Origin: Patescibacteria group bacterium
Lineage (GTDB): Bacteria; Patescibacteriota; Patescibacteriia; Magasanikbacterales; UBA922
Direction of reading: 5' to 3'
DNA length: 50,267 nucleotides
NCBI GenBank assembly: GCA_018823045.1
Contig: JAHJIX010000011.1
Span: 1 to 50,267 of the forward strand
Made by a program: the position numbers and the translations under genes. A model generated the notes under the pieces. It did no database searches. It was not told the origin of the DNA and was given only the letters and a program-made list of their open reading frames with translations. The stretch's first letter is position 1, and each line of letters begins with the position of its first letter. Of this stretch, positions 10,742 to 42,033 are shown one piece after another.

Positions 10742-11164
10742 ATGTCAAACCGACACCTTGCTAGATCAATTGTTATGCAAATCCTGTATCAATGGGATTT
10801 TCGTGGACGGCCCACTGCGGCACTTCCTGCAATTATTGATCAACATCTAGAAGAATTTGGTGTTGGTCTAACAGATAATAGTGAGTATATTACTGATACT
10901 GTCCATGCAGTTGTTGATGTTATTGATGAACTCGATGCAGACATTGCTGCACACGCAACAAACTGGCCACTTGAGCAAATAACTTCTATTGACAGAAATA
11001 TTTTACGTATTGGTGTTTATGAAATGCGCCAAAATAAAGATATTCCTGCAAAAGTTGCAATTAATGAAGCAATTGAACTTGCCAAAAATTATGGTGGCCC
11101 ATCATCAGGAAAATTTGTAAATGGTATTTTAGGTGCAATGTACAAAGCAACACTTGATGAATAG
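10742..11164 (+). CDS. nusB: Transcription antitermination factor NusB
   Basis: [43 protein letters not shown]. Confidence 0.96.
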
Positions 11165-25603: not shown

Positions 25604-26335
25604 CTAGATATTGGTATACATCTCTTTTACATCATCATTTTCATCAAAGGCTTCTTCTAGTTTATCAATTTTTTCTCTCACAACATCGTCTACATCCAGC
25701 AATTCTTTTGGCATCCATTCAAGTCCAGATTCCTCTGGTTCAATTCCCGCTTCCATCACCGCATCAAGCACCGTTTTGAGTGACTCTTTTGCCGTTAAAA
25801 TTTGCACAAATTCTCCATGATCTTTTACATCAGCCGCCCCTGCATCAATAAGCGCTAAGCTGAGTTCATCCAAATCTAATCCTTTTTCTTTCAGCATGTC
25901 TTTTGAAAATAAGATAGATCCTACATGGTCAAACTGCCATTGAACGGCTCCCGGACCACCCATAGAACCACCATATTTTGACAACAGATGTTTTACTTCA
26001 GACACTGTTCTATTTTTATTATCAGTGACGGTTTCAATCAATATTGCCACTCCATTTGGACCAAACCCTTCATACACGATTTCTTCAAAAATAACACCCT
26101 CTTTATCTTCACCAGTTCCACGTTTAATCGCGCGCTCAATATTATCTTTTGGCATGTTTGCTGCCTTTGCTCTCTCTACCGCTAGACGTAAGGAAAAATT
26201 CATATCAATATCCCCCCCACCTTGTTGTGCGGCAAGGGTGATTGCACGTAACATCTTTGTAAATAGACTACTGCGCGCTTTATCTGCTTTTCCTTTTTTA
26301 TGTTGAATTTTACTCCATTTATTATGTCCACTCAT
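25604..26335 (-). CDS. yebC: YebC/PmpR family protein
   Basis: MSGHNKWSKIQHKKG, NMPKDNIERAI, YEGFGP.G, TDNKNRT. Confidence 0.95.
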   Translation of the reverse strand: MSGHNKWSKIQHKKGKADKARSSLFTKMLRAITLAAQQGGGDIDMNFSLRLAVERAKAANMPKDNIERAIKRGTGEDKEGVIFEEIVYEGFGPNGVAILIETVTDNKNRTVSEVKHLLSKYGGSMGGPGAVQWQFDHVGSILFSKDMLKEKGLDLDELSLALIDAGAADVKDHGEFVQILTAKESLKTVLDAVMEAGIEPEESGLEWMPKELLDVDDVVREKIDKLEEAFDENDDVKEMYTNI

Positions 26336-26663
26336 AAGATAATCCCATATTAAGTATATACTCTTCTTTGAGTATAACGAGATTTATAGAATATTTCAAG
26401 GATTGTTTTTCTCACACAATTATGCTATAGTACATATATTCTTATTCTCTTCTCGATAGTCCTTACCCTTAGTACTCAGAATCTTTAAAGTATACACCCC
26501 CTAACTCAAAGTAAAGGGGAAAATCCAGAACCTCCATAGTGCGTCAAAGCCTCAACTGCCGACCAAAGCAGCAAAGACGAGTTTTTGTTTTTGGATTCCT
26601 GTGGCAACACACAGCACACAGGACTCCTCTAAGTATATTCCAAACAAAATCGAATGAAACATA

Positions 26664-26716
26664 CTATAAAGGATCCATCACGATCAAGTACAAATCACGT
26701 GATGGAAGCCGAGTTG
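26664..26716 (-). repeat. Spacer motif B: terminator-like hairpin with TGATTTGTACTTGAT apex
   Basis: Minus CAACTCGGCTTCCATCACGTGATTTGTACTTGATCGTGATGGATCCTTTATAG aligns with 31801-31853. Confidence 0.8.
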
Positions 26717-26881
26717 CTGTATTCCCTACAGCGGGGAGAAAGCTCGAATGATACCGATTACGTATGATACCCGCTTTCCTTTAAAGAACAATGCTCTGGA
26801 TTGACCTCCATCATGAGCAGTAAGGAAACTTCTTTTTATCTTGTGAAAGATTGGTAAAAGTTAGAAAACCATTTTGGAGAC

Positions 26882-27790
26882 TTAAAGTCTCCGTGCGATG
26901 GCAGCCTCCCGAACGGCCATCGCGTTTGAGCTGCTGGTGACATTGGCGATTTCCATCACCTGATCCACCAGCTCCTCAGCTCGGTCGCGGGACAAGTGAG
27001 GGCTCATCCCTTGTCCCTCGCGCAGATACCACTGCTTGGGGGAAAGGAGGGAGAACCCCTCATCCGCGACATTCTCCCGCCAACCGTCCTCGGGAAGGAC
27101 TTCCTCGTCCTCGCGACCAAGGTAGAGCTGGCGGGAGGCCTCCGGCATCCACGAGCGCATGCGCGCGTCGCAGTACCGGAGGCCCTTGACACTGATCTCA
27201 TCGTAGCCGAGCCGCCGAAGCTCGGGCAGGAATGAGAGATCGCTCACTCCTGCTATGTACGGGTGCGCGATCGGGAGCGCGCGCACACCGTACTCACGGG
27301 CCAGCTCGAGGGTCTTCAAGTGCTGCTGCACCGAAACACCCTCAACGTCGCCGTTACCAGAAATCCCAACAACCAAAAAGAGGTTAGGGATCTCGGCCAG
27401 GCGACGCATTTGCTGGCGGGAGACAGCCCACTTTGTGCAACAGGTCACGAGCTTGGCCCGACTCGCAACCTGCCCCAAGAAGTGCCAGAGCCACTTGTCA
27501 AGCTTTGGCCATAACGGATCTGTTATAGCCGTAAACCCGACAAAGTCGCCTTCAAGCACTCCCCAGGGGAATCGCAGGAATCGGTCCTGCGCCGCCGGGT
27601 CTTCCCCGATCCAAGGCGGCACGTTCACGTACGTGCACGCCTTGTTGATGCCCGCCACGGGATTGGCGTTCCATGTCCCGCGACGAGCATCGTGCTCGGT
27701 TATGAAGCAGTACTTGCATGCCACGGGGCACGCAGGCTTTCCTGCTTCAAATTTGAAGGCCGCCGAGCGGGCCTCCGTGATCTGAATCAC
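26882..27790 (-). CDS. Radical SAM protein (SPL-like fold), GC-rich
   Basis: CPVACKYC (CX3CX2C), TDP, TK, ISG, PYIAG strand motifs; SD AGGAGG before GTG start. Confidence 0.8.
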   Translation of the reverse strand: MIQITEARSAAFKFEAGKPACPVACKYCFITEHDARRGTWNANPVAGINKACTYVNVPPWIGEDPAAQDRFLRFPWGVLEGDFVGFTAITDPLWPKLDKWLWHFLGQVASRAKLVTCCTKWAVSRQQMRRLAEIPNLFLVVGISGNGDVEGVSVQQHLKTLELAREYGVRALPIAHPYIAGVSDLSFLPELRRLGYDEISVKGLRYCDARMRSWMPEASRQLYLGREDEEVLPEDGWRENVADEGFSLLSPKQWYLREGQGMSPHLSRDRAEELVDQVMEIANVTSSSNAMAVREAAIARRL

Positions 27791-27906
27791 TCTGACCTCC
27801 TGGCGGGGACTCCCCCGCCTTTTTTTTATTTTTTTGTTTTAAATTTGTCAGCACGACCGCGACGGACAATGTGGTGTCAGACGTCACGGCCGTGCTGAGA
27901 TGGCCC

Positions 27907-29082
27907 TCAGCGCTGGAGCATGTGCTCCAGGTCGGCGGGCGCGCAACCCACCGACGACCGGTCGGTGTAATGGTGCAGGATACAATACCTACACCCAAAA
28001 CACTTTTCGAGCTGGGCCGACCAAGGCCACCAGCTGTTGAGGCAGTGGAGGTTCGCACCCCCGACAGCCTCTTGGAGGACCTTAACGTGGCCCACGTCAA
28101 GCCCCCCTTCGTCAATCATCCCCGGCTTGACACACAAGGTGCCACCGAGGACGAACCGGCAGAAGGTGAGGTCCCCGAGGGTGCGCGCGTTGCGCACCAC
28201 GACGCGGGGCTGCCGCTCGACGTAACACGTCGTGCAGCAACTCTTGCAGTTCAGCCGCGTATCGCTGCTGAAGCTGCACGCCTTCTGCGGGGCAGGTTGG
28301 TACTCGAGATCGTAGCCCACCTGCCGGAGCCACGCGAGAATCTCAGGGTTGGGCTCGGTAGGACCACAGGTACCCCGAAGGGGACACTCGATCGCATCGC
28401 ATCGAACCAACTGAGGCGAACCCCAGTAGGGGTTGAAGGGCGAAGGACGCCCCGTGAGATAGCTCACGGCACAGTTCACTCGCGTGAACAAACGGATCCC
28501 ATTCTCACGGGCACACTCCATGACGAGGTCGAACCCCGTCATCTGCTTCACCCTCAAGACCCACTCAGTCCCTTCCTCAGGAGACATCTCCTCGATCAAG
28601 GAGGCATCCCCCCGGAACCCGCTCACGCAAGCGACCTCACACCCAGCCGCCTGGAGATTTTGAAAAATCTCCGTCAACACCTCCCTCGAGGTGTTGTAGG
28701 GCGGGGTTAAGGGACGGACGGCCGCAAAGGCCTTCACCCCCGCTTCCCGAAGGTTGCGGAGGGTAGTATAGCGGTGGGCGTGACCCACCTCCTCGAACGC
28801 CCGGCCGAGGCCGGAAACGCTCACCATCACAACCAGCCCGGGCAGGACCAACCTGGCCAAATCTGCGGCCCGCTGGGGACCGATGGCCCCCTTCGTGATG
28901 ATGCTCACCGGCCCGGTATGCCCGGTCTCGGCGAGCCGCTCGAGCTTCTCCATGGTATCACCCCACTGGAGGGTGGGGTCACCGTAGTAACAGTTGACGG
29001 AGACAGGCAGGGCCCGGAGGGCCTGCCCGACGATGGAGGTGGTGAGGTTGCGGGCGGAGTTGATGTTCTTGCTGTTGCTCAT
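27907..29082 (-). CDS. Cys-rich radical-SAM-like protein with the cluster motif at the C-terminus, GC-rich
   Basis: GDP, IITKG, VSVSG, RPLTP, VSGFRG strands; CKSCCTTC and C-terminal CFGCRYC; SD GAAAGGAG before ATG 29082. Confidence 0.75.
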   Translation of the reverse strand: MSNSKNINSARNLTTSIVGQALRALPVSVNCYYGDPTLQWGDTMEKLERLAETGHTGPVSIITKGAIGPQRAADLARLVLPGLVVMVSVSGLGRAFEEVGHAHRYTTLRNLREAGVKAFAAVRPLTPPYNTSREVLTEIFQNLQAAGCEVACVSGFRGDASLIEEMSPEEGTEWVLRVKQMTGFDLVMECARENGIRLFTRVNCAVSYLTGRPSPFNPYWGSPQLVRCDAIECPLRGTCGPTEPNPEILAWLRQVGYDLEYQPAPQKACSFSSDTRLNCKSCCTTCYVERQPRVVVRNARTLGDLTFCRFVLGGTLCVKPGMIDEGGLDVGHVKVLQEAVGGANLHCLNSWWPWSAQLEKCFGCRYCILHHYTDRSSVGCAPADLEHMLQR

Positions 29083-29213
29083 GATATCTCCTTTCAAGAG
29101 AATTGAGCGTACTAAACGCATCCACAACGGATACGTTCATATATACTTTTTTTTAAAAATATACATAAACGTATCAGGATAGTGTCCTTTTGACACTATC
29201 CTTGAGATACAAT

Positions 29214-30557
29214 TTATTTTGTTATTTCTTCCATGGCTTCGATAAAGCGATCCACATCTTCCTGCGTATTACACAAGGCAAATGATGCTCGAATAAATCC
29301 AGGAACAGCATCCTCTTTGCCTGCTTTTACATCTTCAATAATCTTTGTTTCATCTTGAATATCGAGCACCTGACGAATCACATTATATACACAAAAACTT
29401 CCAGCACGCACCCCAATGCCAAATCGACTATTGAGTTCTTCTGCCACGTCTGTAAAGTTTATTCCCTTTACATTAAATGGCACAACTGTGCTCAAATGAT
29501 TATCATTTACATAGAGCTCAATCTTTGAATTATTTTTCAAATAATCATATACCTGCTTTGCAAGTCCATGTTCATATGCTTCAACCTGCTCAATTCCAAT
29601 GTCTTCCAATGCTTCAAATGCTGATGCCATAGAAATGGCCCCAATCGCATTTGGTGTACCTGGATCATGTGCGAGTTGATTAGTATAACGTAAAAATTCA
29701 CCGTCTTTTGTAATATATGGTAAATTTCCACCGCCAATTTCATAAGATAAAAAGTTATCAAAAAACTTTTTTGGACCGATCAAAAATCCTCCACCATATG
29801 GCGCATAAAATTTATGACCAGATGCAGCAAGAAAATCAATTCCAAGCTCTTGCATGTCCATTGTATGATGTTGTACAAACTGACAAGCATCAACAATAAA
29901 ATATGCTCCGTATTTATGAACCAATTGTCCAATTGCTTTGATATCTGGACAATATCCTGTTGCATTTGATGATGCAGTAAGTACAAACGCTTTAATATCA
30001 TGTTCTTTTAATAATTTTTCAATATCTGCTAAATCAAATTCAAAATTTTCATTCACAGAATATTGTAATACTTGTTTTCTCCCTGCAAGCTGAATATGTT
30101 CATTTACGCTTTCCATATCGTCAAGCGCAACTTGCTCACTTCCTAATGCTTTAATTCCTTCTGTTTTAACCCAAGGAAGCCAAGAAGAACTATGTTCAAT
30201 ACTAGATACGGCAACTTTTCCAGAAAGAAAAGAAAAATAATACGCTACAGTATTCATAGCACCTGTAGTATTACCAGTAAACAAAACATATGCATCTTCT
30301 GGAGCGTTTACAAAACGTTTAATCGTATCTCTACTTGCTTCGTATACATCTGTCGATACTTTAGATTTTACTCCAGCACCACGATGAACAGAACCATAGC
30401 TTGCAATATATTCTTGTACAGCTTGCTCAACTGAAGCAAGAGCTGGAGTTGTCGCTGCATTATCTAAATTAACATAGCGAACAAGACCACGATCAGTGGT
30501 TTTTACTTGATAATTCTGAATTGCTTCAGAAAATAAATTGTTTGTTTGAATTGTCAT
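29214..30557 (-). CDS. Class V PLP aminotransferase / cysteine desulfurase (SufS-like)
   Basis: NLDNAATTP, DACQ, ASGHKFYAPYG, GVRAGSFC. Confidence 0.9.
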   Translation of the reverse strand: MTIQTNNLFSEAIQNYQVKTTDRGLVRYVNLDNAATTPALASVEQAVQEYIASYGSVHRGAGVKSKVSTDVYEASRDTIKRFVNAPEDAYVLFTGNTTGAMNTVAYYFSFLSGKVAVSSIEHSSSWLPWVKTEGIKALGSEQVALDDMESVNEHIQLAGRKQVLQYSVNENFEFDLADIEKLLKEHDIKAFVLTASSNATGYCPDIKAIGQLVHKYGAYFIVDACQFVQHHTMDMQELGIDFLAASGHKFYAPYGGGFLIGPKKFFDNFLSYEIGGGNLPYITKDGEFLRYTNQLAHDPGTPNAIGAISMASAFEALEDIGIEQVEAYEHGLAKQVYDYLKNNSKIELYVNDNHLSTVVPFNVKGINFTDVAEELNSRFGIGVRAGSFCVYNVIRQVLDIQDETKIIEDVKAGKEDAVPGFIRASFALCNTQEDVDRFIEAMEEITK

Positions 30558-30616
30558 ATTGTTTTTTATAAAAATCTTCTCAACCAACTCTATTCTTAAA
30601 AAATAAAGTAAGTAAT

Positions 30617-30847
30617 CAAAGGGATAAGGTGCTACTTATCCTGGTTTGAGTGCTGATACAGGCAGAATTACCCATATCACTGTTTCTTCTCATGAAGTCT
30701 CATTGCAAGGTCGCTTGCAACTCCTTCTTTAGCCGTGAGAATGCGCACTACGATAGTGACGCGCGGCAAGCTCGGTAGGAAGATAGATATTCACCTATCT
30801 ATGAGCTATTCCCAGTTTACTGCTGGTTCAGTTTCTGGCTGGACCAC
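30617..30847 (-). other. Hairpin-dense structured spacer ending in GGATAAG-TAGCAC-CTTATCC-CTTT
   Basis: At least five local inverted repeats visible in 230 nt. Confidence 0.65.
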
Positions 30848-31141
30848 CTAACGGGTGGGACGTTGCCCAAGCTTCGCTTCGATAGAAGCAAAAGCCTGGT
30901 GGGCCTCCGCAGTCCAAGGCTTCTCCTTGAAACTACGGTAGCCCATACAACACGCGAAAAACTCCGCATCCATCCCCGTCAAGAGGACAGAAAGAGATTT
31001 CCGCATCCCCGTCTCAGGCGGATCCATCCGGAGAGCAGCATTCTGCCGCCCATCCTGGAGAATCCACCGGATAGGAGTCCACCCCTCCAAAACTGCAGCC
31101 GCCATGACGCGGGCAGCCCTGAAGGTCTGATGATGGCTCAT
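30848..31141 (-). CDS. Hypothetical protein (97 aa), GC-rich
   Basis: Co-oriented ORF whose GC-rich block matches the ORF limits. Confidence 0.6.
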   Translation of the reverse strand: MSHHQTFRAARVMAAAVLEGWTPIRWILQDGRQNAALRMDPPETGMRKSLSVLLTGMDAEFFACCMGYRSFKEKPWTAEAHQAFASIEAKLGQRPTR

Positions 31142-31470
31142 CAATTTTCCACCACGCCTTGTCTCCTCGCGCTCCCGCAAGGTCTTTCGGGGTGGTGGCA
31201 ACTAAGAGTCACTGACCCAATATGGGTTATCCTTTGCGCATCAATATGACTTGCAAAACCAGTGTGATACACATTGCATGTATCTAATACAAAAAGAATT
31301 ATTCTTTTCGAAACCATCATGCAGATGGATCTTCCCGTACATCTAACAGCACGGGCTTTGATATGACTTGGTATTTGGGGTCCTAGCCCTTTAGGCAATA
31401 CCTTGCCATGCACCCCGACTGAGTCGGGGCACTCCCGGACATGCCGGTCCAGTGAATCCACCGTCAGACG

Positions 31471-31701
31471 CTAGGTCAACTCGGTGAACCGAGGTCCACC
31501 GAACCGAACGTCAAAGGCATCCGACGTAGGCGCGCAAGAAGCAAAAGCCTCTCGCAACGCCTGTCGGTTACCACGACGGTGGAGGCGCCGAGCCAAAACA
31601 GCAAAGCTGCTGTTTTGCACACCCTTACGCAGGTGTGCACTCCGCGCAGCCCCTTTCGAGACTGCACGAGCTGGCTGGCGCCCGCCATTTTGACGAGACA
31701 T
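31471..31701 (-). CDS. Small Arg-rich basic protein (76 aa)
   Basis: SD-like AAAGGA next to the ATG; ARRLHRRGNRQALRE segment. Confidence 0.5.
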   Translation of the reverse strand: MSRQNGGRQPARAVSKGAARSAHLRKGVQNSSFAVLARRLHRRGNRQALREAFASCAPTSDAFDVRFGGPRFTELT

Positions 31702-31770
31702 TCCTTTTATATATAAATACACTCTATACAAAAGCGATGCCTCGTCTGTTATTTATTTTGTAAAAAACTT

Positions 31771-31853
31771 CTTCTAAGAAACATCTATACATAGATACTT
31801 CTATAAAAGTCCCATTCCAATCAAGTGCAAATCATGAAATGGGAGTCGAGTTG
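31771..31853 (-). repeat. Spacer motif B: TTGCAC-loop hairpin, CTTTTATAG and a downstream small hairpin
   Basis: Near-identical flank to 32964-33038 (CTTCTAAGAAACATCTA..ATAGATACTTCTATAAAAGTCCCAT..GTGCAA..ATGGGA on +). Confidence 0.9.
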
Positions 31854-32008
31854 TGTATACGTTTTGCGGGTCGTATACTACCCCGTTTGATTCGCATTGC
31901 ACGAATCGTTTATGCGTCCAGACAGAAGATTCTGGGCGACTTTCCTTGCCGTGGTGTAAGATCAGGCAAGGACATTTGGAAAAAGACCAGCAGAGTCAGC
32001 GAGTCAGT

Positions 32009-32596
32009 TTAATCAGCGACGACACACCAGGTGTCATCGTATGACTTTACTTCCACAGCCTTCTCACGGATCTCCTCGACGGTCCACGTCGCCGCCTCAT
32101 TGTTTCCGCCCGCTAAGTTATGCACAAAGCGAACAGGACTCAGAGGAGCCTTCGGGCCGGCAAAGGCGAGGATGGCAACCAGCACATGCGTGCAGTCACT
32201 CTCCTCGATCCGTTGCTGCTCTTTGGCGTCAGCCTGGACGTCGGGGTCAGCCAGGTAGGCCTCGCGGGTATAAACCACGAGAGCACACCCGTCAACCGCC
32301 GCCGCACAGGATCGCTTCAGGAAAAGCTCGACTCGTCCACGGTAAAGTACCGCGTGAAAGTCAGAAGCATTCTCCGTACGACGACCAACGCCAGCAGAGA
32401 CGAACGGAACTGCATCCGGAACAAAGATAAAACCTTGCCCCGGAACGTCCTGTCCCTCGAAGTCAAACGCAGCAATAGCTTTTTGAGCCACCTCTGTGAA
32501 TTTCTCTGAGTTAAGAACCTTCGTTCCAATCGCCTCCACGTTGAAAGCAGAAACGATGCTCGCATGGGTCACACGAACATCAGGAGTATTATTCAA
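32009..32596 (-). CDS. Hypothetical protein, DUF3228-like
   Basis: SD AAGGAGG; VVYTREAY..LVAILA..PLSPVRFVHNLAGGN..W pattern recalls DUF3228 (family call tentative). Confidence 0.7.
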   Translation of the reverse strand: MNNTPDVRVTHASIVSAFNVEAIGTKVLNSEKFTEVAQKAIAAFDFEGQDVPGQGFIFVPDAVPFVSAGVGRRTENASDFHAVLYRGRVELFLKRSCAAAVDGCALVVYTREAYLADPDVQADAKEQQRIEESDCTHVLVAILAFAGPKAPLSPVRFVHNLAGGNNEAATWTVEEIREKAVEVKSYDDTWCVVAD

Positions 32597-32963
32597 TCAT
32601 TTCCTCCTTTCTCACCGCAGCTCTCGCTTTGGCGACCCAGGCTCTTATGGCATTGCACCATAAGTCCCTGCTGCTTAAATATCATCTTGTATTGAGTGTT
32701 GTTCCCCTGTTGACCTCAGGGGTGAGCGGGAATGCTCTCTCAATCTCTCTATTCTAAACGATATTGTTAGAACAGAATTTTACAAGGCAAGCAGTAGCTG
32801 ATAACGGAGCTTATGCGAATACGTAACATGTATTAAACGCCTGTGCATTGCGCGCAGGTCTCTCATCGGGAGACGAGAGATCATGAAATTTCTTTCATCT
32901 AAGATATCTAGAGAAAGATACACTACATGAAAGAAACTTCTATATATTTTTTAATGAACTGGT

Positions 32964-33076
32964 CTTCTAAGAAACATCTAAAATATAGATACTTCTATAA
33001 AAGTCCCATCAAATTCACGTGCAATGAATCAGATGGGAATAGACTTTCGCAGTCAAGTGCTTATCGTGCGAAAGTC
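32964..33076 (-). repeat. Spacer motif B, tandem pair of GCAC-loop hairpins
   Basis: Minus GACTTTCGCA-cgatAAGCACttgac-TGCGAAAGTC, then TCCCATCTGATTCA-TTGCACG-TGAATTTGATGGGA-CTTTTATAG. Confidence 0.85.
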
Positions 33077-33350
33077 ATGTGTAATATTTAACCCAATATT
33101 CTAGGGGAAACCTCGATTGATACCTTCTATGTGTACCCGGTTTCTTTTTTACTCATTTTCGGCGAGTAACCTATTCTGGATTCATGCCTTCACCAGAAAT
33201 GGCGGAATGTTTTCTTCTTGCTTTGTGTAAGTTTCTCCGACGTAGGAGAGCAAGAACCGTCAACAGACAACGGTGGTTTTTAAGCATCCTAGGATCAACC
33301 AATACCTAGGCCCACTCTTATGTTACCCTTCAGAGTGATTAGGGGGGCTC

Positions 33351-34385
33351 TTAACCCAAGCGCGCCTTGAGCGCCGGCAGCACCGTCTCGTTCCAGACCA
33401 CCTCGCTCACGTGGAGGAGGAAGGTCGTGTTGGAGATGATGCCCGCGGCGGGCGAGGACTCGAAGTCGTCGGGGAGGAGCGACTGCAGGTTGATGTCCTG
33501 CTGGTGCCGCTTGCTCACCGCGAGCGAGTACTGCGCGCCGTGCTGCGCCGCGATCGGGCCGAACGCCTTCACGACGACGGTCACCTTGGCGCCCTTGGTC
33601 TCGAGCGCCCGCGTGAGCGTGTTCAGCTCGAAGCGTGGGGCCTCTCGCGAGTCCACGAGCCACGTGGACGGGGCCACCTCGGTCGCGGTCTCGGCGAGCG
33701 CCTTGGCGGCTCCGACCTGCTCCTCGTACTGCGCCACCTTCTGGCGCAGGCCGTCGAGCGCGGTCTCGTCGCCCTGCGACGCGTCGACGAAGCTCTGGAA
33801 GAACTCCGCCTTGGCGTCCTCGGAGCGCTGCGGCGCCTTCGGGTTGAAGGGCGGCAGCGTGCCGAGCGCACGGCAGGCGAGCCAGCCGAGCTCCGAGAGG
33901 GTCTCGGCGCTCTGCTTCGGCCGCTCGTCGAAGACGGCGGCGTCGGCGTCGATCTGCTCGTAGGTCACGCCCAGCGCCTTCATGGCACCCGTGAGACCGT
34001 CCAAGTCGCTGTCCGCGACGATGACGGTCCCCTCGGCGTTGAACTCCCCGCTCGTGATGAGCGTGGAGCACGCGGGGTGCTCGGCGCGGCTGGAGATGAT
34101 CGCGTCGGACGCGACCTCACGGAGGCGGGACGCGGCGTCGGCGATCGACTGCGCACGCGGGTTCGAGGGGGCGAGCTCGTCGTGGTGGTCGCGGACGACC
34201 ACGTTCACACCGTCGGCCACGAGGGCCTCGGCCGTGGCGACGAGCTGCTCGGTGGCGGGGGTGTCGATGAACACGACCTGCCGCGCCTCGAGGGCGGCGA
34301 GCTCGGTCAGGACAGTCTCGCGGTCGCTGGGGCTGAAGAACTTCGAGAACAGAACGTTGGAGTCGCTGATCTTGATCTGGAACAT
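33351..34385 (-). CDS. DHH-like phosphoesterase, very GC-rich
   Basis: FIDTP, VRDHHD, DSDLDG motifs; SD GAGGAG before ATG 34385. Confidence 0.7.
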   Translation of the reverse strand: MFQIKISDSNVLFSKFFSPSDRETVLTELAALEARQVVFIDTPATEQLVATAEALVADGVNVVVRDHHDELAPSNPRAQSIADAASRLREVASDAIISSRAEHPACSTLITSGEFNAEGTVIVADSDLDGLTGAMKALGVTYEQIDADAAVFDERPKQSAETLSELGWLACRALGTLPPFNPKAPQRSEDAKAEFFQSFVDASQGDETALDGLRQKVAQYEEQVGAAKALAETATEVAPSTWLVDSREAPRFELNTLTRALETKGAKVTVVVKAFGPIAAQHGAQYSLAVSKRHQQDINLQSLLPDDFESSPAAGIISNTTFLLHVSEVVWNETVLPALKARLG

Positions 34386-34596
34386 GTTTATCTCCTCAGA
34401 GACTACCTGGTATGTCAAACCAGGGGAATCTCAGATAGCTTATGCCAATCCTTGATCCCAAATTATTATTTCTACAGATATTGACAACGCCTCTGTATGG
34501 CGCGCTTGGGAGCTTCCCCCAAGTATTACATATCAGTTTTACACCCGATACTACGGTGTGAGATAAATCTCAATGTATGTACCTGCCTTGCTAACA

Positions 34597-34648
34597 GGGG
34601 ATCCTTCGATTACTCCCGTACTTCGTCAGGATCCACTCAGGATGACAG
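34597..34648. repeat. REP-like half element
   Basis: GGGGATCCTTCGA..CACTCAGGATGACA, same family as 18627-18747. Confidence 0.75.
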
Positions 34649-34927
34649 TGATATACACACATTGAGAATCATCTCAAATTATTTTTTCTTTTAAAGATCA
34701 GTACCTGTTCCCTATTACTTGTTACAAGTTATACGATACAGGTTACACGTTTAGTCGTAATACCGACTGTTCCTGCTCCCATCTCTTCTTGCGAATTAAT
34801 GAGGGCGGAACGCACTCGGTACTATCCATGTCTCACAACATGTATAGGAAGCTCGCGAGTGGGAAGCTTCGATCTTTCGATCAAATCTATCCACAATCTC
34901 CAGCTTCTCTCTCAGTTTCCTGAGAGC

Positions 34928-35030
34928 GATGTACTCACATTGCCGGAAGAAATCTCTCTCCTTCCTTTACTCGGGCAATATGGGTAAGCATCTAAGTGAT
35001 ATAAGTGTATAAAACACAAACGCATTGTCA
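34928..35030 (-). ncRNA. Leader motif A, copy 1 (putative structured RNA)
   Basis: TGACAATGCGTTTGTGTTTTATACACTTATATCA then a long stem enclosing TAAAGGAAGGAGAGAG; homologous to 39971-40064. Confidence 0.6.
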
Positions 35031-35264
35031 GTTATCTGCTATGATATCTTTTTCTTCCGCTCATCCCCCGACAAGTTATGTTGGCCTCAGAATGAAAAAA
35101 CACTCCTTTGAGGGAGCGCGCTATAGTGACTGGCATACAGAGATACTCTCTATATACTAGCCCTATCTCGCTCTCTCTTTCGATCTAGGTTGCTTGATTT
35201 GTAAGGTTACTTGTCTTGATTGACTTGTGGCTGTTTTTCTTGCCCTTTGTCATCATGACGTCAT

Positions 35265-35293
35265 ACTATAATACAAAATAGAGAAAATGTCAA
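35265..35293 (-). promoter_or_regulatory. sigma70-type promoter P1 driving the leftward array
   Basis: TTGACA-17-TATAGT. Confidence 0.75.
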
Positions 35294-35364
35294 GACCTCG
35301 TTGTTTATGTTGTCTTTTTAAAATATAATTTAGCTTATTTTAGCTAAATTTATGTATAGTAAAT

Positions 35365-35386
35365 ATGTCCAGTGCCTACTAGACAT
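35365..35386. promoter_or_regulatory. Putative operator (ATGTCTA-N8-TAGACAT family)
   Basis: ATGTCCA-gtgcctac-TAGACAT. Confidence 0.6.
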
Positions 35387-35605
35387 ATTTAAGTTAGAGA
35401 ACAAAAAAAGCCCTAAAATAAGGCAAAAAATACGTTCTGTTCTACTGAACTCGTTATGAACAAAATACAATTTCTTGGCTAATATAAGGTAAAAAATAGA
35501 TGTGGAAATCAAAAAACAATACTCCCCTGCCCCCAAAATATCTAAAAAAGAAGAAAAATCAAGGTATTTCTCCAAAAAATATTGATATCAACGAACAAAT
35601 AACCC

Positions 35606-35790
35606 CGTCATTGCGCCGCGTGCCGTTTATCGGTGAGCCATAGCGAAGCAATCCCCTCGCCAGCTCCATAGTCTGAAGAGCAACGGAAGCTGTGGAGCTT
35701 CTATGCTCTTGCACTATGGCTCCACAGCCCTAGCGGGACTATGGAGCCAGCTTATGAGGCTCCCTCCAGAGGCGGGCAAGCGCAATGACG
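35606..35790. repeat. RPE/REP-like palindromic element with nested internal hairpins
   Basis: CGTCATTGCG..GAAGCAATCCC..GCTCCATAGTC/GACTATGGAGC..CGCAATGACG. Confidence 0.75.
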
Positions 35791-35998
35791 TGATAAAAGA
35801 GCCAAAAAACACCCTTGTCAATAGAAAAAGAGCTTGACAAAGCAAAAAAATAAGCAAATTTTGCTTATTTTAGTGTAAAAATGAATGATTGACAATTGCC
35901 CTATTTTATGCTATATTATATCTATCAAGACGAAAAGGGTCCCTGATATTCAAATTATTTGGATGGATGGCCCCCTTTTTTATTTTACTTCAACAGAT

Positions 35999-36047
35999 AA
36001 AACATGTCTACACTCACTAAGACATGTTTTTTCTTTTATGCTATAAT
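35999..36047 (+). promoter_or_regulatory. Palindromic operator overlapping the -35 of the regulator's own promoter
   Basis: AAAACATGTCTA-cactcact-AAGACATGTTTT; extended -10 TGCTATAAT at 36039-36047. Confidence 0.7.
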
Positions 36048-36079
36048 AAAGCAAATAACAACCCTCTAATACCTCTACT

Positions 36080-36859
36080 ATGCAAGAAACAATTATTACC
36101 AACCTCATGGAAGCAGGGCTTGACCCAAGTACTGCTGAAATTTATATGATGCTCATTGAACGTGGTGAAATGTCTCCAAAAAACATGTTCCCTCATACGG
36201 AACTCTCTCGTGCGACCGTGCATGATGCATTATCTGAACTCTTAGCCTATGATTTTGTAGAATACCGCAAAGAAGGCCGCCAAGCATATTATATGCCAGT
36301 CCACCCAAATAAACTTCATAATTTGATTGAAGACAAAAAACGAGAGACAAAACAGTTTGAGCAAAACATGCAAGAAACCATCCGCTCACTAAGCGGTACA
36401 TTTAACTTGAGCCAACACAAACCAGGGGTCCGATTTTTTGAAGGAAAAGAAGGATTGAGAGTAGCACTTGGAGATACATTAACATCCCAAGGAACGATCT
36501 ATGCATATATAGATGTTGATTCTGTGGTAGATAAAAATATTGATGAAATGAACCAAGCCTATGTCAAAAAAAGAAAAGAATTAGGCAAAGATAAACAACT
36601 ACTGATTAATAATAGTGCCAGTGCTCAGGAATACATGAAAAAACTTGGACCAAAAAATACAGATACGCGCATGTTACCCACATATATAGACGCTTTCCAT
36701 ACGAGTCTACAAATTTATGACAATAAAGTACTCTATGTAACCCTACGAAAAAAAAATATTATTTCTATTATTATAGAAGATAAAGATATTTATAAACTCC
36801 AAAAAGATTTATTTCACTTTCTGTGGGATATGTCAAAAGATTCAATGATCCAACATTAA
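36080..36859 (+). CDS. TrmB-family transcriptional regulator
   Basis: N-terminal wHTH (GL...AEIY..L...SRATVHDALSEL), coiled linker, PGVRFFEGKEG, C-terminal IYDNKV..IIED..F..LW effector domain. Confidence 0.88.
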   Translation: MQETIITNLMEAGLDPSTAEIYMMLIERGEMSPKNMFPHTELSRATVHDALSELLAYDFVEYRKEGRQAYYMPVHPNKLHNLIEDKKRETKQFEQNMQETIRSLSGTFNLSQHKPGVRFFEGKEGLRVALGDTLTSQGTIYAYIDVDSVVDKNIDEMNQAYVKKRKELGKDKQLLINNSASAQEYMKKLGPKNTDTRMLPTYIDAFHTSLQIYDNKVLYVTLRKKNIISIIIEDKDIYKLQKDLFHFLWDMSKDSMIQH

Positions 36860-39294
36860 TTACTTTTTTCCTCAACCTGCTCAAAAACAAATACGCGTTG
36901 TTTCCCATCTGGATGATCAAAATACCGATGGACATCATACCCCTCTTTTGTGAGTCTTTCAACGGTATCAAGTGCAACCTGCCAATGATCTTCAGCAGAA
37001 AAAGCACGGACAATCAATCCTTTTGGATTATCATCTTGATCAATAAACGCAAGTAAATCTTCTTCTGTCATATAACGAGATATAGCGTCTGCATTCTGCT
37101 TCACATCAGCAACCATGGTATAAAACCATATATCCTTTTTTATTTCTTCAATCCCTGTAATTCTAAATCCAATATCTTCTACATACCTTATTCCCACAGA
37201 GATCGCTGGAGAAGCTGTAATATGAAAAGGAGACTCTTCTACAACTTTTGTGAGGGAACCCAACATCATTACTTCTCCAATTCCAGCACCCCGATAGTTA
37301 GAATTGACATTAAACCACTGACCATATAATTCATCTGGTTTTTCTGGTATTGGTGTAAAACCAAAAAAACCAAGAATATTATTTGCATATTCATTTTCAG
37401 TATCTACTTGAAGACCCTTTGCTTCAGAAAGATCTTCAATCCTCAATATAAAAAATTCTGTTTCTTTCTGAGAAAATGCACCTTCTAGCCCACGAACAAC
37501 TTCCTCAACAATTGCAGATTCTTGTGTAGACCAATTTTTAAATACAATTTCTTTCATTCTCTCTTGATCAATAGGTGAAATTTTTATTGCCCGCTCTCTA
37601 TTCAAAGATAAATTATTAACAACAGAAATATCTACACGCTCTGCTCCCTTAAACTTCTCCCGAAAAATAGCCGAAAAAGCCACAACTTCTCGATTTACCC
37701 CTTCTAATAATGTAATTAACTGAGCCATTTTTTCATCATCCCGCATCACAGTATGATATTTTTTTAGTAAACCGGTTGCTTTATTTAAAATACTGGTACT
37801 GATTCTCGTTGTGGATAATCCTTCTGCATAATTATGTTCAGTAAAAAAATCTTCTATATGAATATCTAATTCTTCTGCTGCCCGAATAATTTCACTAAAT
37901 TGATGAAAAACATCCTGGGCTATTTCTTTTTTTTCTCTTGCTTCAAAATACTTTGCCATAGAAATAATACGGCCAGAAGATTTCTCATCAGCTTCAGTCG
38001 CCAACAAACAACGTATTCCCTCTATCCCATATTTTTCTTTTAATTCTATTAAAACCTGAGCTTTATGTTGTGCTTCTTTACTCTCAAATTCTTCACCAAT
38101 AAATTGATACACCCAAAAGATTTCTCGGACACTTAAATTACCAATTAAATTTCGATAATGAATATGAAAATCTGGTAAATCTATTAAAAAACGATTTCTC
38201 TTTTCTTCTGGGTAACCCCCTTCATGCGAAAAAAGTAAATTATATCCTAAATTTTCATTTATCGTAGCTGTAATAGTCTCTCCATACCCACTTCTATCCA
38301 TCTGACGTGATTTGACTTGTATATAACCGATTGGGCCCAACCTCCCAAAAATACTAATTGTTTCTGCTGAATCTAATTGTTGCACATATATTGCATCCTT
38401 AGGGATATGTCCTTCTATAATAAAATGCTTATCTAATATATCAAAAGTATTTCCTTGTATTGAGACGGGTCCAACATCAACGTTTTTTAAAATCCAATCA
38501 TAAGTATCAGCTAATCCAACTTTTTTCTCAATTCTTGCTTTCTTTCTTTTTGCAAGGAGATATTGTGCTTGTTCTTCATCGACAAGTTCAAATATATCAC
38601 AGATTGCACGAGTAAATTTATATGGATATGGATGATCAATCCATGCATCTAAATCTGCTTTAAATCTATCTGGATCTATAAGAGATTGTAAAGACATAAC
38701 TTTCTGTGCATTTGTAAAGTTTGCTCGATTTGATGATGAATAAGATTCTTCATCTAAACGCCACTTTAAATCAGCATTATAAGGTGCATTATGCTCTGCA
38801 TATTGATGAGATCGATCATATTCACCATTATACGGAACTCCACCCCCAGCTGTGATTTTTTTCATTAATGCATTCCTGATATCTTCTGCTAAGATATTAA
38901 TAATAGCTGCTACAGACTCAACACCTGCTTCAAGTGATTTAAATACATACTTTTTTAACATTGTTAATAACTCCGCATAAACAATTTCATCAAATCCAAA
39001 TTGATCTTCTGTTCCTTCATTAATCCCTGCGTAAGGAATATCTTTACGCTCATCACCACGCAGTGGCAAATCAGATTCTTCTTTTCCTCGTATCTGATCA
39101 AGTAATCCATCATCTTCAATTAAAAAATGCAATTCATCTTCTATCAATTCATGATCTTTTAATTCTCGTAACATATCAATATATGCTTCTACGGTATCCG
39201 CTGATTCAAATCGTTTTTTCCAATAAAAAAAAGACTCATGTTCTTTATGAGTTTCTTCTTCACTACGGGGATATCTTCGCTCTGATCTATTCAT
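36856..39294 (-). CDS. Large acidic protein with C-terminal GNAT acetyltransferase domain
   Basis: FNVNSNYRGAGIG acetyl-CoA motif A and YVEDIGF motif B. Confidence 0.75.
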   Translation of the reverse strand: MNRSERRYPRSEEETHKEHESFFYWKKRFESADTVEAYIDMLRELKDHELIEDELHFLIEDDGLLDQIRGKEESDLPLRGDERKDIPYAGINEGTEDQFGFDEIVYAELLTMLKKYVFKSLEAGVESVAAIINILAEDIRNALMKKITAGGGVPYNGEYDRSHQYAEHNAPYNADLKWRLDEESYSSSNRANFTNAQKVMSLQSLIDPDRFKADLDAWIDHPYPYKFTRAICDIFELVDEEQAQYLLAKRKKARIEKKVGLADTYDWILKNVDVGPVSIQGNTFDILDKHFIIEGHIPKDAIYVQQLDSAETISIFGRLGPIGYIQVKSRQMDRSGYGETITATINENLGYNLLFSHEGGYPEEKRNRFLIDLPDFHIHYRNLIGNLSVREIFWVYQFIGEEFESKEAQHKAQVLIELKEKYGIEGIRCLLATEADEKSSGRIISMAKYFEAREKKEIAQDVFHQFSEIIRAAEELDIHIEDFFTEHNYAEGLSTTRISTSILNKATGLLKKYHTVMRDDEKMAQLITLLEGVNREVVAFSAIFREKFKGAERVDISVVNNLSLNRERAIKISPIDQERMKEIVFKNWSTQESAIVEEVVRGLEGAFSQKETEFFILRIEDLSEAKGLQVDTENEYANNILGFFGFTPIPEKPDELYGQWFNVNSNYRGAGIGEVMMLGSLTKVVEESPFHITASPAISVGIRYVEDIGFRITGIEEIKKDIWFYTMVADVKQNADAISRYMTEEDLLAFIDQDDNPKGLIVRAFSAEDHWQVALDTVERLTKEGYDVHRYFDHPDGKQRVFVFEQVEEKSN

Positions 39295-39326
39295 ATGAGT
39301 TATTATATCACAGATTGTCTCTTTTT

Positions 39327-39548
39327 TTATATATCAAAAGAGAAGGCGGTGCAGGCCTTCTCCGAGTGGTGATATATTGTTTCGTCTCTTTTAGCAGCGT
39401 CGCTACCATGGACAAGATATATCAACTCGCCCATTCCCCATGTGTACTCTTCAGCGGTAGCCTCCGAATACCACTCTAGCCAAGGGTATGGCATGCAGTT
39501 TGCTTCACAGCAATCCACTCCCGGTTTACTGCCGGTGCAGTGAGCCAA
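39327..39548 (-). CDS. Small Cys-containing hypothetical protein
   Basis: 73-aa ORF directly after 39556-39750 in a GC-richer block; TTG start uncertain. Confidence 0.45.
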   Translation of the reverse strand: MAHCTGSKPGVDCCEANCMPYPWLEWYSEATAEEYTWGMGELIYLVHGSDAAKRDETIYHHSEKACTAFSFDI

Positions 39549-39555
39549 GCAGAGG

Positions 39556-39750
39556 CTAGGCGGCTACTGACCGCCGCCGCTCAGATTGGAGTTCATCATA
39601 AACTCCAATGAGGATCCAGTGATCCCCAGAGCAACGGAGGCAATAGCAAGCAGCCTCAAAGCAGTGCTGGCAAAACCATGAATGGCTTTCCAGCGTGGCA
39701 CCCGCGCGAAAATACGCGCGGACAGCTTCTGCTTTCTGTCTACTTGACAT
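39556..39750 (-). CDS. Small Cys-rich (Zn-finger-like) protein
   Basis: CQHC..CYCLRC; first ORF after promoter P2 and its leader. Confidence 0.55.
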   Translation of the reverse strand: MSSRQKAEAVRAYFRAGATLESHSWFCQHCFEAACYCLRCSGDHWILIGVYDELQSERRRSVAA

Positions 39751-39970
39751 GAAGATCTCTTTTCATGAAATCTCACCCCACTCCTTGCTCCCCTGATGCT
39801 ACCGTGCAATATCAGGGGTATTCGGAGTGGGGCCTTTCTTTTCTTGTGAAACAACTTGCTGGACTATCCAGTTACCCACCCCAACACATGCTACGGTGAC
39901 AAGTTGGATTTTTCCTCCTCCACTTTCCTATATAAAAAATCTCTGCACAAAAAAGTAAAGAAAGAAAAAA

Positions 39971-40064
39971 TGCTGATACTCGTCAAAAGGCTCTCTCTTC
40001 CCTTTAAGCAATATCAGCAATGCTTTTCTTGATACAAGTGTATAACACACAAACGCTATTGTCA
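39971..40064 (-). ncRNA. Leader motif A, copy 2
   Basis: TGACAATAGCGTTTGTGTGTTATACACTTGTATCA then a TGCTGATA/TATCAGCA stem enclosing TAAAGGGAAGAGAGAG. Confidence 0.6.
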
Positions 40065-40108: not shown

Positions 40109-40168
40109 GCTGCACAAATTCACAATTATGTTTATTGCCTACACTAAGCTAATTTATATCCTTAATAT

Positions 40169-40190
40169 ATGTAAAGTGGTGATTAGACAT
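40169..40190. promoter_or_regulatory. Putative operator (ATGTCTA-N8-TAGACAT family)
   Basis: ATGTAAA-gtggtgat-TAGACAT, with flanks similar to 35342-35395. Confidence 0.55.
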
Positions 40191-40371
40191 ATTTATGTCA
40201 AAACATAAAAAAATAACTAAAATAACACAAAAAACAGCTCTTTATATAAAAAACTGTTCTTTTAGGGGTATATGTGATGAAATACGTCTAGTTCACTAGA
40301 GGTATTTACATAAATGTGTACACTACTCAACACAACTACCTTGATTTTATTTCTTAGTTGACAAGTTACAT

Positions 40372-41783: not shown

Positions 41784-41950
41784 GCCATAATTGGCTAGTC
41801 GGACCCAGCTGTGCCCGACGATAAAGAAACTGGGAAAGCCACAACAGAGATCCAGGAGAAGTTGTGGCGGCGGATCTGTTCCGTCGGTCTAAAGTAACCA
41901 CATTCGTGGAAACGATAGATCTCAAGACAACCCGACACACTCGGGACCCC

Positions 41951-41987
41951 AAAGGCATCTCTTGCACCAGAGACGCCTTTTATTTTA
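41951..41987 (+). terminator. Terminator-like hairpin with TTGCAC loop
   Basis: AAAGGCATCTC-TTGCACCA-GAGACGCCTTT-TATTTT. Confidence 0.7.
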
Positions 41988-41990
41988 CAA

Positions 41991-42018
41991 AAAAACACCG
42001 TCAACAGACGGTGTTTTT
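41991..42018. terminator. Bidirectional terminator after rpoC
   Basis: AAAAACACCGTC-aaca-GACGGTGTTTTT. Confidence 0.85.
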
Positions 42019-42033
42019 ATGTTTCTTATGTAT

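Follow-up and report, generated by a model that had tools for sequence, protein, structure and literature searches.

Two leftward promoters in a stretch of DNA from a Patescibacteria group bacterium are followed by nearly the same short sequence, here called motif A, and this raises the question of what the sequence belongs to and at which level it might act. The stretch analyzed (the window, 50,267 nt) is contig C9 of the 1.16-Mb, 24-contig genome G000 (GenBank assembly GCA_018823045.1, contig JAHJIX010000011.1). We found that the conserved, covarying object at this locus is a large leader outside Rfam, which precedes a run of GC-rich genes (the cargo) and in which motif A occupies a linker. 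The reading that we favor, tentatively and with a probability of roughly 0.45, is that motif A serves as a genus-specific factor site acting at the RNA level inside an attenuation/antitermination leader.

Both copies of motif A in the window are located on the minus strand. Copy 1 reads TGACAAT-GCGTTTGTGTTTTATACACTTATATCA at 35030-34997 and copy 2 reads TGACAATAGCGTTTGTGTGTTATACACTTGTATCA at 40064-40030, and the first-pass annotation had already described this pair, with the same 2 substitutions and 1 gap that we counted over 35 nt. A degenerate 27-nt core, GCGTTTGKGTKTTATACMCTTRTATCA, matched the whole window exactly at 35023-34997 and 40056-40030 only. The repeat is not random, since none of 100 dinucleotide shuffles reached two matches (mean, 0.00), and repeat detection independently returned the same pair (family D4). 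Two further elements reported in that annotation were recovered as well. GACGT was seen two bases past the -10 box of both promoters (35262-35258 and 40077-40073), and the folds of both copies contain, 15 nt past the core, ATATTGC and a hairpin with the purine-rich TAAAGG(G)AAG(G)AGAGAG. The distance from promoter to motif is about 230 nt for copy 1 and about 15 nt for copy 2. Moreover, the 72 nt downstream of both copies gave a local score of 22, compared to 12.7 ± 2.1 in shuffles (5/2000 reached it), which suggests a modest but real similarity.

How old and how widespread is the motif? The whole genome was searched at up to five mismatches and 100 relatives at up to three. A third copy of the core, GCGTTTGGGTGTTATACCCTTGTATCA, was found on contig C3 (6520-6546, minus strand), and no copy beyond these three was detected in the genome at up to five mismatches. 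The single other species of the genus searched, hereafter the sister species, carries two copies, orthologous to copy 1 (in the same leader) and to copy 3 (at the C3 locus); no counterpart of copy 2 was found there, and none of the 99 other relatives gave a match at up to three mismatches. From this distribution, motif A appears to be restricted to the genus and older than the split of its two species. It is on the sense strand of the downstream genes at all three loci. The flanks of copies 1 and 3 are 68-86% identical between the species. Copies 1 and 2 share a flank with 71% identity over 84 nt, and their overall alignment has a mean column identity of 65%; judged by this alignment, motif A is better conserved than its surroundings.

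These data bear on the idea that motif A has no function of its own, being either the remnant of a segmental duplication or a small dispersed repeat whose copies gene conversion keeps similar. Copy 2 is a clear partial duplicate of the copy 1 region with its parts in the same order, other small dispersed repeats occur in these leaders, and gene conversion would account for the species-specific loop that is common to unlinked copies (described below). However, the orthology of copies 1 and 3 within such diverged flanks indicates that the motif is old and was retained, it is far better kept than the flanks of the paralogous pair, and a dispersed repeat fits poorly with only three copies in the genome and none in the 99 other relatives. 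A conversion tract of 27 nt between unlinked sites would also be unusually short. We thus regard this explanation as improbable.

We then asked what motif A is embedded in. Leader searches covered 107 genomes of the family to which this bacterium belongs, 150 other genomes of the phylum, and 80 loci with a homologue of the first cargo gene. Two covariance models were used, R1 for the leader 3' domain (alignment of 15 sequences) and R2 for the second purine-loop hairpin (built from 12 genera, this genus excluded). At copy 1, the untranslated leader would extend over about 870 nt from promoter P1 to a start codon at 34385, and its parts are the following.

35293-35265, minus strand: promoter P1, TTGACA-17-TATAGT, an 11/12 sigma-70-like match.
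35157-35208, minus strand: leader module 1, a AACCTTACAAA box and the first purine-loop hairpin (..GAAAGAGAGAGCGAG..), counterpart of the family's ACCTTACAA..GGAAGGAGAGAGCC.
35094-35119, minus strand: intrinsic-terminator-like hairpin GCGCTCCCTCAAAGGAGTGT followed by T6, a putative attenuator (terminator scan).
35024-35076, minus strand: ACTTGTCG loop region (the family's GCTTGTYG hairpin), ATCATAGC, and the TGACAAT linker start (linker alignment).
34997-35023, minus strand: motif A core of copy 1, GCGTTTGTGTTTTATACACTTATATCA (exact core match).
34925-34992, minus strand: purine-loop hairpin 2 (ATATTGCC..GGAAGGAGAGAGATTTCTTCC..GGCAAT), conserved in the family (R2, 66 bits, E 2.3e-16; fold).
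34755-34860, minus strand: leader 3' domain (CTCGCG, CCTA hairpin with UGUGAGA loop, TAGTACCGAGTGCG, closing helix ..GTCGGTATTA), supported by covariation.
34689-34699, minus strand: boxA-like site GATCTTTAAAA, 1 mismatch to GYTCTTTAANA (excerpts of PMC5725501).
34559-34676, minus strand: long-range 23-bp helix (34676-34654 with 34581-34559), 87% complementary, with 72 nt enclosed, located past the boxA-like site and before the gene.

The terminator is reached about 140-160 nt into the leader, and about 700 nt of further conserved structure follows it. A blastn search with 346 nt around copy 1 gave matches in 24/107 family genomes. Using R1, we detected the 3' domain in 27/107 family genomes and 21/56 genera, in one copy each and in one genome in two. 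Only 1/150 of the other genomes sampled across the phylum had a match, and R1 was found upstream, on the same strand, in 4/80 loci with a cargo-gene homologue. By these matches, the leader is conserved patchily in this family and a few relatives. Among the 15 aligned 3' domains, 14 of the 27 predicted pairs change on both sides and 90.1% of the cells are paired, compared to 38-50% in slid controls; none of 500 shuffles reached the observed covariation. These compensatory base changes support a structured RNA for the 3' domain of the leader, not for motif A.

Is this RNA already known? The first-pass annotation had recognized no known riboswitch, and this held when the Rfam check was run. Rfam 15 returned only 2 tRNAs over the whole window at gathering score, and between 26000 and 42500 a single weak and unrelated IS128 match (41949-42021) at E ≤ 1. 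Full-text literature searches gave listings with no published description of the leader RNA or of GC-rich leader cassettes in Patescibacteria, such listings being no proof of absence. The unit of about 100 nt proposed in the annotation needs to be redrawn, however: what is conserved is the leader of about 870 nt common to many genera, motif A is a genus-specific element of its linker, and the 100 nt are best explained as the front of a 5' leader RNA acting in cis rather than as an RNA standing alone. The proposal of a novel cis-acting RNA holds for the covarying leader that lies behind the promoter at copy 1 and has no Rfam family, whereas the support for a motif A hairpin is not significant. 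Likewise, the observations named in the annotation as speaking against such an RNA, namely a match to a known family, or a lack of covariation together with a lack of linkage to promoters, did not arise for the leader; for motif A itself the covariation is not significant.

Aligned homologues in the family share one order of parts. The leader starts with the ACCTTACAA box and a hairpin presenting GGAAGGAGAGAGCC, followed by the intrinsic terminator (GCTCTCTCC-loop-GAGAGC-T5) and, in most genera, by a long stem ending GTCGACGCAAGTT. Its middle contains the GCTTGTYG-loop hairpin and the linker ATCATAGC..TTGACR..TTCTTTAC; next come the second purine-loop hairpin, ATCGCCCGAGAAAGGAAGGAGAGAGAYTYC..GGCGAT, and the 3' domain, composed of CTCGCG and CCTAC-hairpin-GTAGTACCGAGTGCG-hairpin-ACTCTGTATTAC. 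In the linker alignment, motif A is located between the conserved ATCATAGC..TGACA words and the second purine-loop hairpin. At this position other genera have TTGACR and then a boxA-like box of the TTCTTTAC type, e.g., GTTTGGTTCTTTACC or CATTCTTTACATC. In this genus, motif A seems to have taken the place of that box or to be a strongly diverged form of it.

The same linker raises the possibility that motif A and its TGACAAT prefix form an internal sigma-70-type promoter, with a shorter transcript starting just before the purine-loop hairpin. Both copies contain a 9/12 match (CTGACA-16-TACACT at 35031-35004 and GTGACA-17-TACACT at 40065-40037), the TTGACR word is conserved at the linker position in many genera, and an internal start would bypass the early terminator. 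However, a 9/12 match is readily expected by chance (shuffles of 1.9 kb contain 5.0 ± 2.6 promoter-like sites), a -35 element is missing from copy 3, and copy 1 of the sister species has TCGACA about 20 nt from TACACT, which is the wrong spacing. Other genera have no conserved -10 element at the right distance, and the site does not qualify as a sigma-70 promoter. An internal promoter is therefore quite improbable in our view.

Two types of small repeats were observed in or near the leaders. Small insertions of the ACCCGTCTYC..CGCCGGGCAAG type interrupt leaders L009 (sister species) and L015 at different places and may represent a dispersed hairpin repeat. Just past the 3' domain, the segment 34715-34753 (minus strand; ..GTAACCTGTATCGTATAACTTGTAACAAG..) matches multi-copy short repeats in several family genomes, with 7 matches in one family genome and 4 in the sister species.

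Does the leader contain the signals that a read-through decision would need? Terminator and boxA-like scans covered 16 leaders, the terminator scan being strict. An intrinsic terminator was found in 11/16, and in 6 of these 11 the upstream GGAGAGAG(C) is an exact complement of at least 7 nt of the terminator 5' arm. The leader of the window is outside those six; its upstream AGAGAGAGCG pairs imperfectly with the 5' arm. A terminator with an upstream complement would be the layout of an attenuator for a read-through decision. A boxA-like site (at most 1 mismatch to GYTCTTTAANA) is present 79-143 nt past the 3'-domain core in 7/16 leaders, several of which match perfectly, the leader of the window having 1 mismatch; the remaining nine have no such site past the 3' domain at this threshold. 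In two further leaders, the linker region contains a site that passes this threshold. The background for boxA-like sites in this genome is 0.155 per kb per strand, and the window as a whole shows no enrichment of the word, with 22 matches compared to 14.2 ± 4.2 in shuffles. These calls rest on a consensus that is gamma-proteobacterial according to excerpts of Baniulyte et al. (PMC5725501), as the 16S leader of this genome shows no clear boxA by eye. A protein partner of boxA, NusB (PF01029), is encoded in the window at 10742-11164 (120.8 bits, match 10760-11146). With an intrinsic terminator and a boxA-like site in the leader, a function of the antiterminator type, as suggested in the first-pass annotation, or of the attenuator type is a reasonable reading.

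Related words were seen elsewhere in the genome. BoxA-like words with 1 mismatch are present at 32949-32959 and 26779-26789 (minus strand), in the gaps after the 355-aa and 302-aa genes, which suggests repeated leader units along the GC-rich run. A TGACAA(T) word is located 14-25 nt past the -10 box of the 16S promoter (C10:21340-21400) and of both leftward promoters (35245 and 40064), and the 16S leader has CGAGCAAGTT, which resembles GTCGACGCAAGTT of the family leader.

We next consider motif A itself. A 4-bp stem, GKGT/ACMC, with a 5-nt loop is possible in 5/5 copies of both species (20/20 cells paired), and one of its pairs covaries, being U-A in 3 copies and G-C in 2. All 3 copies in this genome have the loop KTTAT, and the 2 copies in the sister species have TATGT. 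The loop has thus changed in concert at sites that are not linked, which suggests either gene conversion or a trans-acting partner that the copies share.

All five copies are also open in the same reading frame across the core, with no net length change, and open reading frames (ORFs) of 53 and 60 aa overlap copies 2 and 3, as would be expected if motif A encoded part of a short hydrophobic peptide (AF[VG]xxTL[VI]S). Against such a peptide, the copies share neither a start codon nor a ribosome-binding site, in copy 1 the frame lacks a start and is closed by a stop a few codons upstream, and the copy 2 ORF has its ATG within the -10 box. Moreover, 6 of the 7 codon-position differences among the copies change the amino acid and one is silent. 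The absence of a start or ribosome-binding site, together with mostly amino-acid-changing differences, led us to rule out the coding reading, which is hardly credible.

The context of copy 3 is different. Its core directly adjoins a terminator-like hairpin on the upstream side and is followed, 8 nt later, by a conserved TATAAT, at a locus between topA and small membrane ORFs (ORF list). An 11-nt inverted partial copy, TGATACAAGGG, lies 133 nt upstream, and the orthologue has one of 9 nt, TGATACAAG, at -131. The region upstream of copy 3 resembles another structured leader with a terminator, for which Rfam names nothing; Rfam searches of the copy 3 loci returned nothing relevant. It is mainly this context, as compatible with a DNA site as with an RNA site, that keeps a DNA-level role of motif A in play. 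Two neighboring features of copy 1 matter here.

36080-36859, plus strand: TrmB-like helix-turn-helix regulator (PF01978, E 1.5e-7), transcribed away from the leader.
35363-35388, no strand assigned: 26-bp palindrome ATATGTC-N12-GACATAT upstream of P1, inside the 84-nt repeat D1 common to copy 2 (repeat search).

A TrmB-like homologue adjoins the leader in 18/21 loci examined, distant ones included. The palindrome, written ATATGTM..AGT..TAGACATAT, was found six times in the genome, at both sites in the window and at C6:10077, C7:8341, C20:16979 and C24:1466, and is likely the operator of some regulon. The regulator also has a weak PADLOC match of the Csa3/CasR type (E 2.9e-6).

Motif A could thus be a double-stranded DNA operator of the TrmB-like protein or of another local regulator, controlling three promoters, with the RNA context being incidental. 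The core is kept as sequence rather than structure, 20/37 alignment columns being invariant in the five copies, and it contains the short dyad GKGT-N5-ACMC. Between a terminator and a conserved TATAAT, copy 3 is at the promoter-proximal place expected of an operator, and paired operators can look like the motif and its inverted partial copies there. A TrmB-like regulator lies near copy 1, and three sites per genome would suit a local regulator. In contrast, copy 1 is about 230 nt past the only strong promoter and copy 2 at about +17 to +43, which are atypical positions, and upstream of both promoters the palindrome is the better operator candidate. A DNA site does not require the change on both sides of a dyad position, every copy is oriented the same way with respect to the genes downstream, and no TrmB-like gene was noted near copy 3 in the ORF list. 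A DNA operator remains a doubtful proposition by itself, and nearly as likely as the RNA site that we prefer.

Several results weigh against an RNA-level site within an antitermination leader. The covarying pair of motif A is not significant, as 50/500 shuffles do as well, and the covariation amounts to one evolutionary event, since orthologues share the pair state. Minimum-energy folds of the five copies agree on nothing beyond the 4-bp hairpin. Motif A was rejected as a boxA: in its best register, GTGTTTTATAC in copy 1, it has 4 mismatches to the gamma-proteobacterial consensus, including a T at position 4, which is changed in the inactive C4T/T6C double mutant, C4 and T6 being critical (excerpts of PMC5725501). 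A boxC-like role in leader-trailer pairing likewise found no support, for the best duplexes of motif A with 3.3-3.4 kb of downstream RNA reached -23.5 and -24.8 kcal/mol, compared to shuffled means of -24.0 and -24.9. No match to Rho (TIGR00767) over the cut-off was found in the whole genome (best, 43 bits versus 509), and the two weak matches, of 43 and 29 bits, are presumably subunits of ATP synthase; with no Rho orthologue over the cut-off, the classical anti-Rho role of boxA may not apply here. Copy 3 may not be transcribed at all. At copy 2, the stem is only a weak relative of the family hairpin: R2 returned only copy 1 at E ≤ 1 on the whole genome, where the copy 2 hairpin is not significant, and searches for homologues of the copy 2 leader in the 106 other family genomes gave only short low-complexity T-rich matches and the motif. 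Finally, the starts and ends of transcription and the read-through are all inferred from sequence.

Under the preferred reading of an RNA site, the leader, placed between the divergent TrmB-like gene and the GC-rich run, would govern whether transcription continues into the cargo, with the early terminator as the decision point and with Nus-type (boxA) processivity or folding help thereafter. Motif A would act as a short RNA site peculiar to the genus, in which fixed flanks surround a 4-bp hairpin with a pentaloop and to which a factor binds in trans. A partial duplication of the palindrome, promoter, GACGT, motif A and hairpin would have given rise to copy 2 and brought a second operon, with an 812-aa protein and two small ORFs, under the control that acts on the first. 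The features of this second locus are as follows.

40167-40192, no strand assigned: 26-bp palindrome, paralogue of 35363-35388 (repeat search).
40108-40080, minus strand: promoter P2, TTGACA-17-TATACT with TG before it, 11/12 sigma-70-like; GACGT at 40077-40073.
40030-40064, minus strand: TGACAATA and motif A core GCGTTTGTGTGTTATACACTTGTATCA (exact core match).
39940-40025, minus strand: hairpin TGCTGATATTGC..AAAGGGAAGAGAGAGCCTTT..TATCAGCA and then a T-rich run, terminator-like (fold; R2, 15.2 bits, E 0.087).
Within 39327-39900, minus strand: GC-rich folded stretch with an inverted repeat, 39776-39797 / 39811-39832 (inverted-repeat search).
39750-39556 and 39548-39327, minus strand: small ORFs of 64 and 73 aa, followed by an 812-aa ORF (39294-36856).

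Copies 1 and 2 share the order of an 84-nt block with the palindrome, promoter, GACGT, TGACAA word, motif A and hairpin, and copy 2 is a recent, lineage-specific, partial and shortened paralogue of the promoter and the front of the leader. Copy 1 also has a TGACAA word directly past its promoter (GACGTCATGATGACAAAGG), so that a deletion between the two TGACAA words of a duplicated copy 1 would give the layout of copy 2. In the R2 search of the window, the copy 2 hairpin was the best same-strand match after copy 1 itself. Alternatively, MAFFT aligned this hairpin with the first purine-loop hairpin of copy 1, and its loop, AAGGGAAGAGAGAGCC, is closest to the first-module loop of the family. The GC-rich folded stretch past the T-rich run is unrelated to the leader. 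Both small ORFs are more GC-rich than the genome, and the 64-aa ORF contains cysteine.

What does the copy 1 leader precede? The first cargo gene is the following.

33351-34418, minus strand: divergent DHH/DHHA1-like gene, 344 aa from the ATG at 34385, with a G+C content at third codon positions (GC3) of 0.95.

The cargo genes of 406, 302 and 195 aa have GC3 values of 0.79, 0.73 and 0.56, compared to about 0.2 for rpoC and other native genes; the GC-rich minus-strand genes, with GC3 of 0.56-0.95, are located at 26882-27790, 27907-29127, 32009-32596 and 33351-34418. The cargo differs between genomes and is regularly GC-rich. Relatives of the 344-aa protein are 50-60% identical in many Patescibacteria and about 40% identical in Melainabacteria. 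A single-protein scan found no related loci, whereas an alignment-based scan succeeded. Composition was examined at 31 of the 80 loci, at most of which the cargo gene is far richer in GC than the DNA on either side. At the Patescibacteria-type loci among them, the cargo gene mostly has a GC content of 0.54-0.70, with flanks mostly lower by up to about 0.3. Exceptions are one AT-rich lineage, which holds the cargo gene at 0.34 GC (GC3, 0.12), and a Peregrinibacteria-labeled locus at 0.46; at Melainabacteria-type loci, the GC content of the cargo gene matches that of the flanks. Searches of the window cargo proteins against PHROGs, NCBIfam and PADLOC gave no informative family, and the Atlas offers leads only: the 344-aa protein may have a DHH/DHHA1-like fold, and the clusters indicated for the 195-aa protein are unnamed and mostly viral. 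A neighboring low-GC gene has generic matches to the class-V aminotransferase/cysteine desulfurase family.

The GC-rich run might be suspected to be an artifact of assembly. One contig of the likely source sample spans it (26000-35746) at even depth, and an independent groundwater run yielded short identical pieces, e.g., 33081-33518 across the AT/GC boundary. Thus, chimerism of the GC-rich stretch is unlikely.

Some further observations concern GC-rich DNA. The segment 30750-31750 (about 0.54 GC) has short overlapping ORFs on both strands with no family match, and may be non-coding or a decayed gene. ARAGORN called a tRNA-Ile at 33455-33534 (plus strand) inside a GC-rich ORF; the Rfam tRNA model does not confirm it, and the call is probably a false positive. 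A second GC-rich island, C15:65187-69327 (0.5-0.69 GC), carries minus-strand ORFs of 646, 271 and 333 aa and has no R1 or R2 match.

Gene regulation in the Patescibacteria, which are ultra-small and uncultured, is almost entirely uncharted, and this locus offers a module in which a regulator gene is combined with a promoter, an early terminator, boxA-like sites and a large, strongly covarying RNA. The module is tied to an unexplained trait, namely native and widely conserved genes with nearly all third positions G or C in AT-rich chromosomes. If the leader indeed enables transcription or RNA folding of such genes, rRNA-style transcription complexes would be linked to protein-coding genes, and a new class of large RNA would be added. 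The duplicated motif A would be a natural experiment, with the same front end before two different operons. More speculatively, and rather unlikely as a whole, the locus could be an uncatalogued cassette in which a TrmB-type regulator is placed beside a pre-rRNA-like leader of about 0.9 kb, with an early terminator switch, boxA-like sites and large covarying domains, and this leader would license genes with up to 95% G+C at silent sites in a genome with a GC3 of about 20%. Motif A would then serve for loading, in the manner of nut, an RNA-binding factor that is specific to the genus and with which it has co-evolved, its duplication having recruited the second operon; such a co-evolved factor would explain the concerted loop change in unlinked copies.

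How does this leader compare with known systems? Similarly to the leaders of rRNA operons and to lambda nut leaders, it is long and untranslated, with a strong promoter, boxA-like sites, nearby hairpins, NusB and a long co-directional gene run. In addition, the small hairpin and pentaloop of motif A beside a conserved single-stranded stretch resemble a boxB/boxA pair. We know of no N-like protein in this organism, in contrast to lambda nut. The GU-rich 5' half of motif A is loosely similar to boxC, UCUGUGUGGG, as given in excerpts of PMC10250234. Unlike these systems, the locus has a motif A that fails as a boxA, no Rho orthologue over the cut-off and no leader-trailer pairing of motif A above shuffles; the intervening RNA is a distinct covarying domain, not rRNA, and the cargo is protein-coding.

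With attenuators and the expression platforms of riboswitches, the leaders have in common the early intrinsic terminator and, in 6 of the 11, its upstream complement. However, Rfam recognizes no known aptamer, the complement in the window is imperfect, and about 700 nt of conserved structure past the terminator is far more than any expression platform is known to have. The operators of the TrmB family include the TGM motif of Thermococcales, TATCAC-N5-GTGATA. Here a TrmB-like regulator is the conserved neighbor, and the (T/G)TATCA(C) end of motif A resembles a TGM half-site, but there is no second half-site in the TGM arrangement, and copy 2 and copy 1 of the sister species end in TATCAA.

In long operons, RNA polymerase can acquire terminator resistance from put (phage HK022), which consists of two stem-loops of about 70 nt, or from EAR (eps-associated RNA), the two RNAs named for comparison in the first-pass annotation. 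The leader resembles both in being a cis-acting structured RNA at the start of an operon with a terminator within or after the element, and differs in architecture and size, having several domains over hundreds of nucleotides. Large ornate RNAs such as GOLLD, ROOL, OLE and raiA are often found in variable or mobile regions. Like these, the leader is several hundred nucleotides long and multi-domain, with strong covariation and a patchy distribution. It matches none of them, and in contrast to them it is always located upstream of, and co-oriented with, genes and carries a promoter-proximal terminator and boxA-like signals, which argues for a leader rather than a free RNA.

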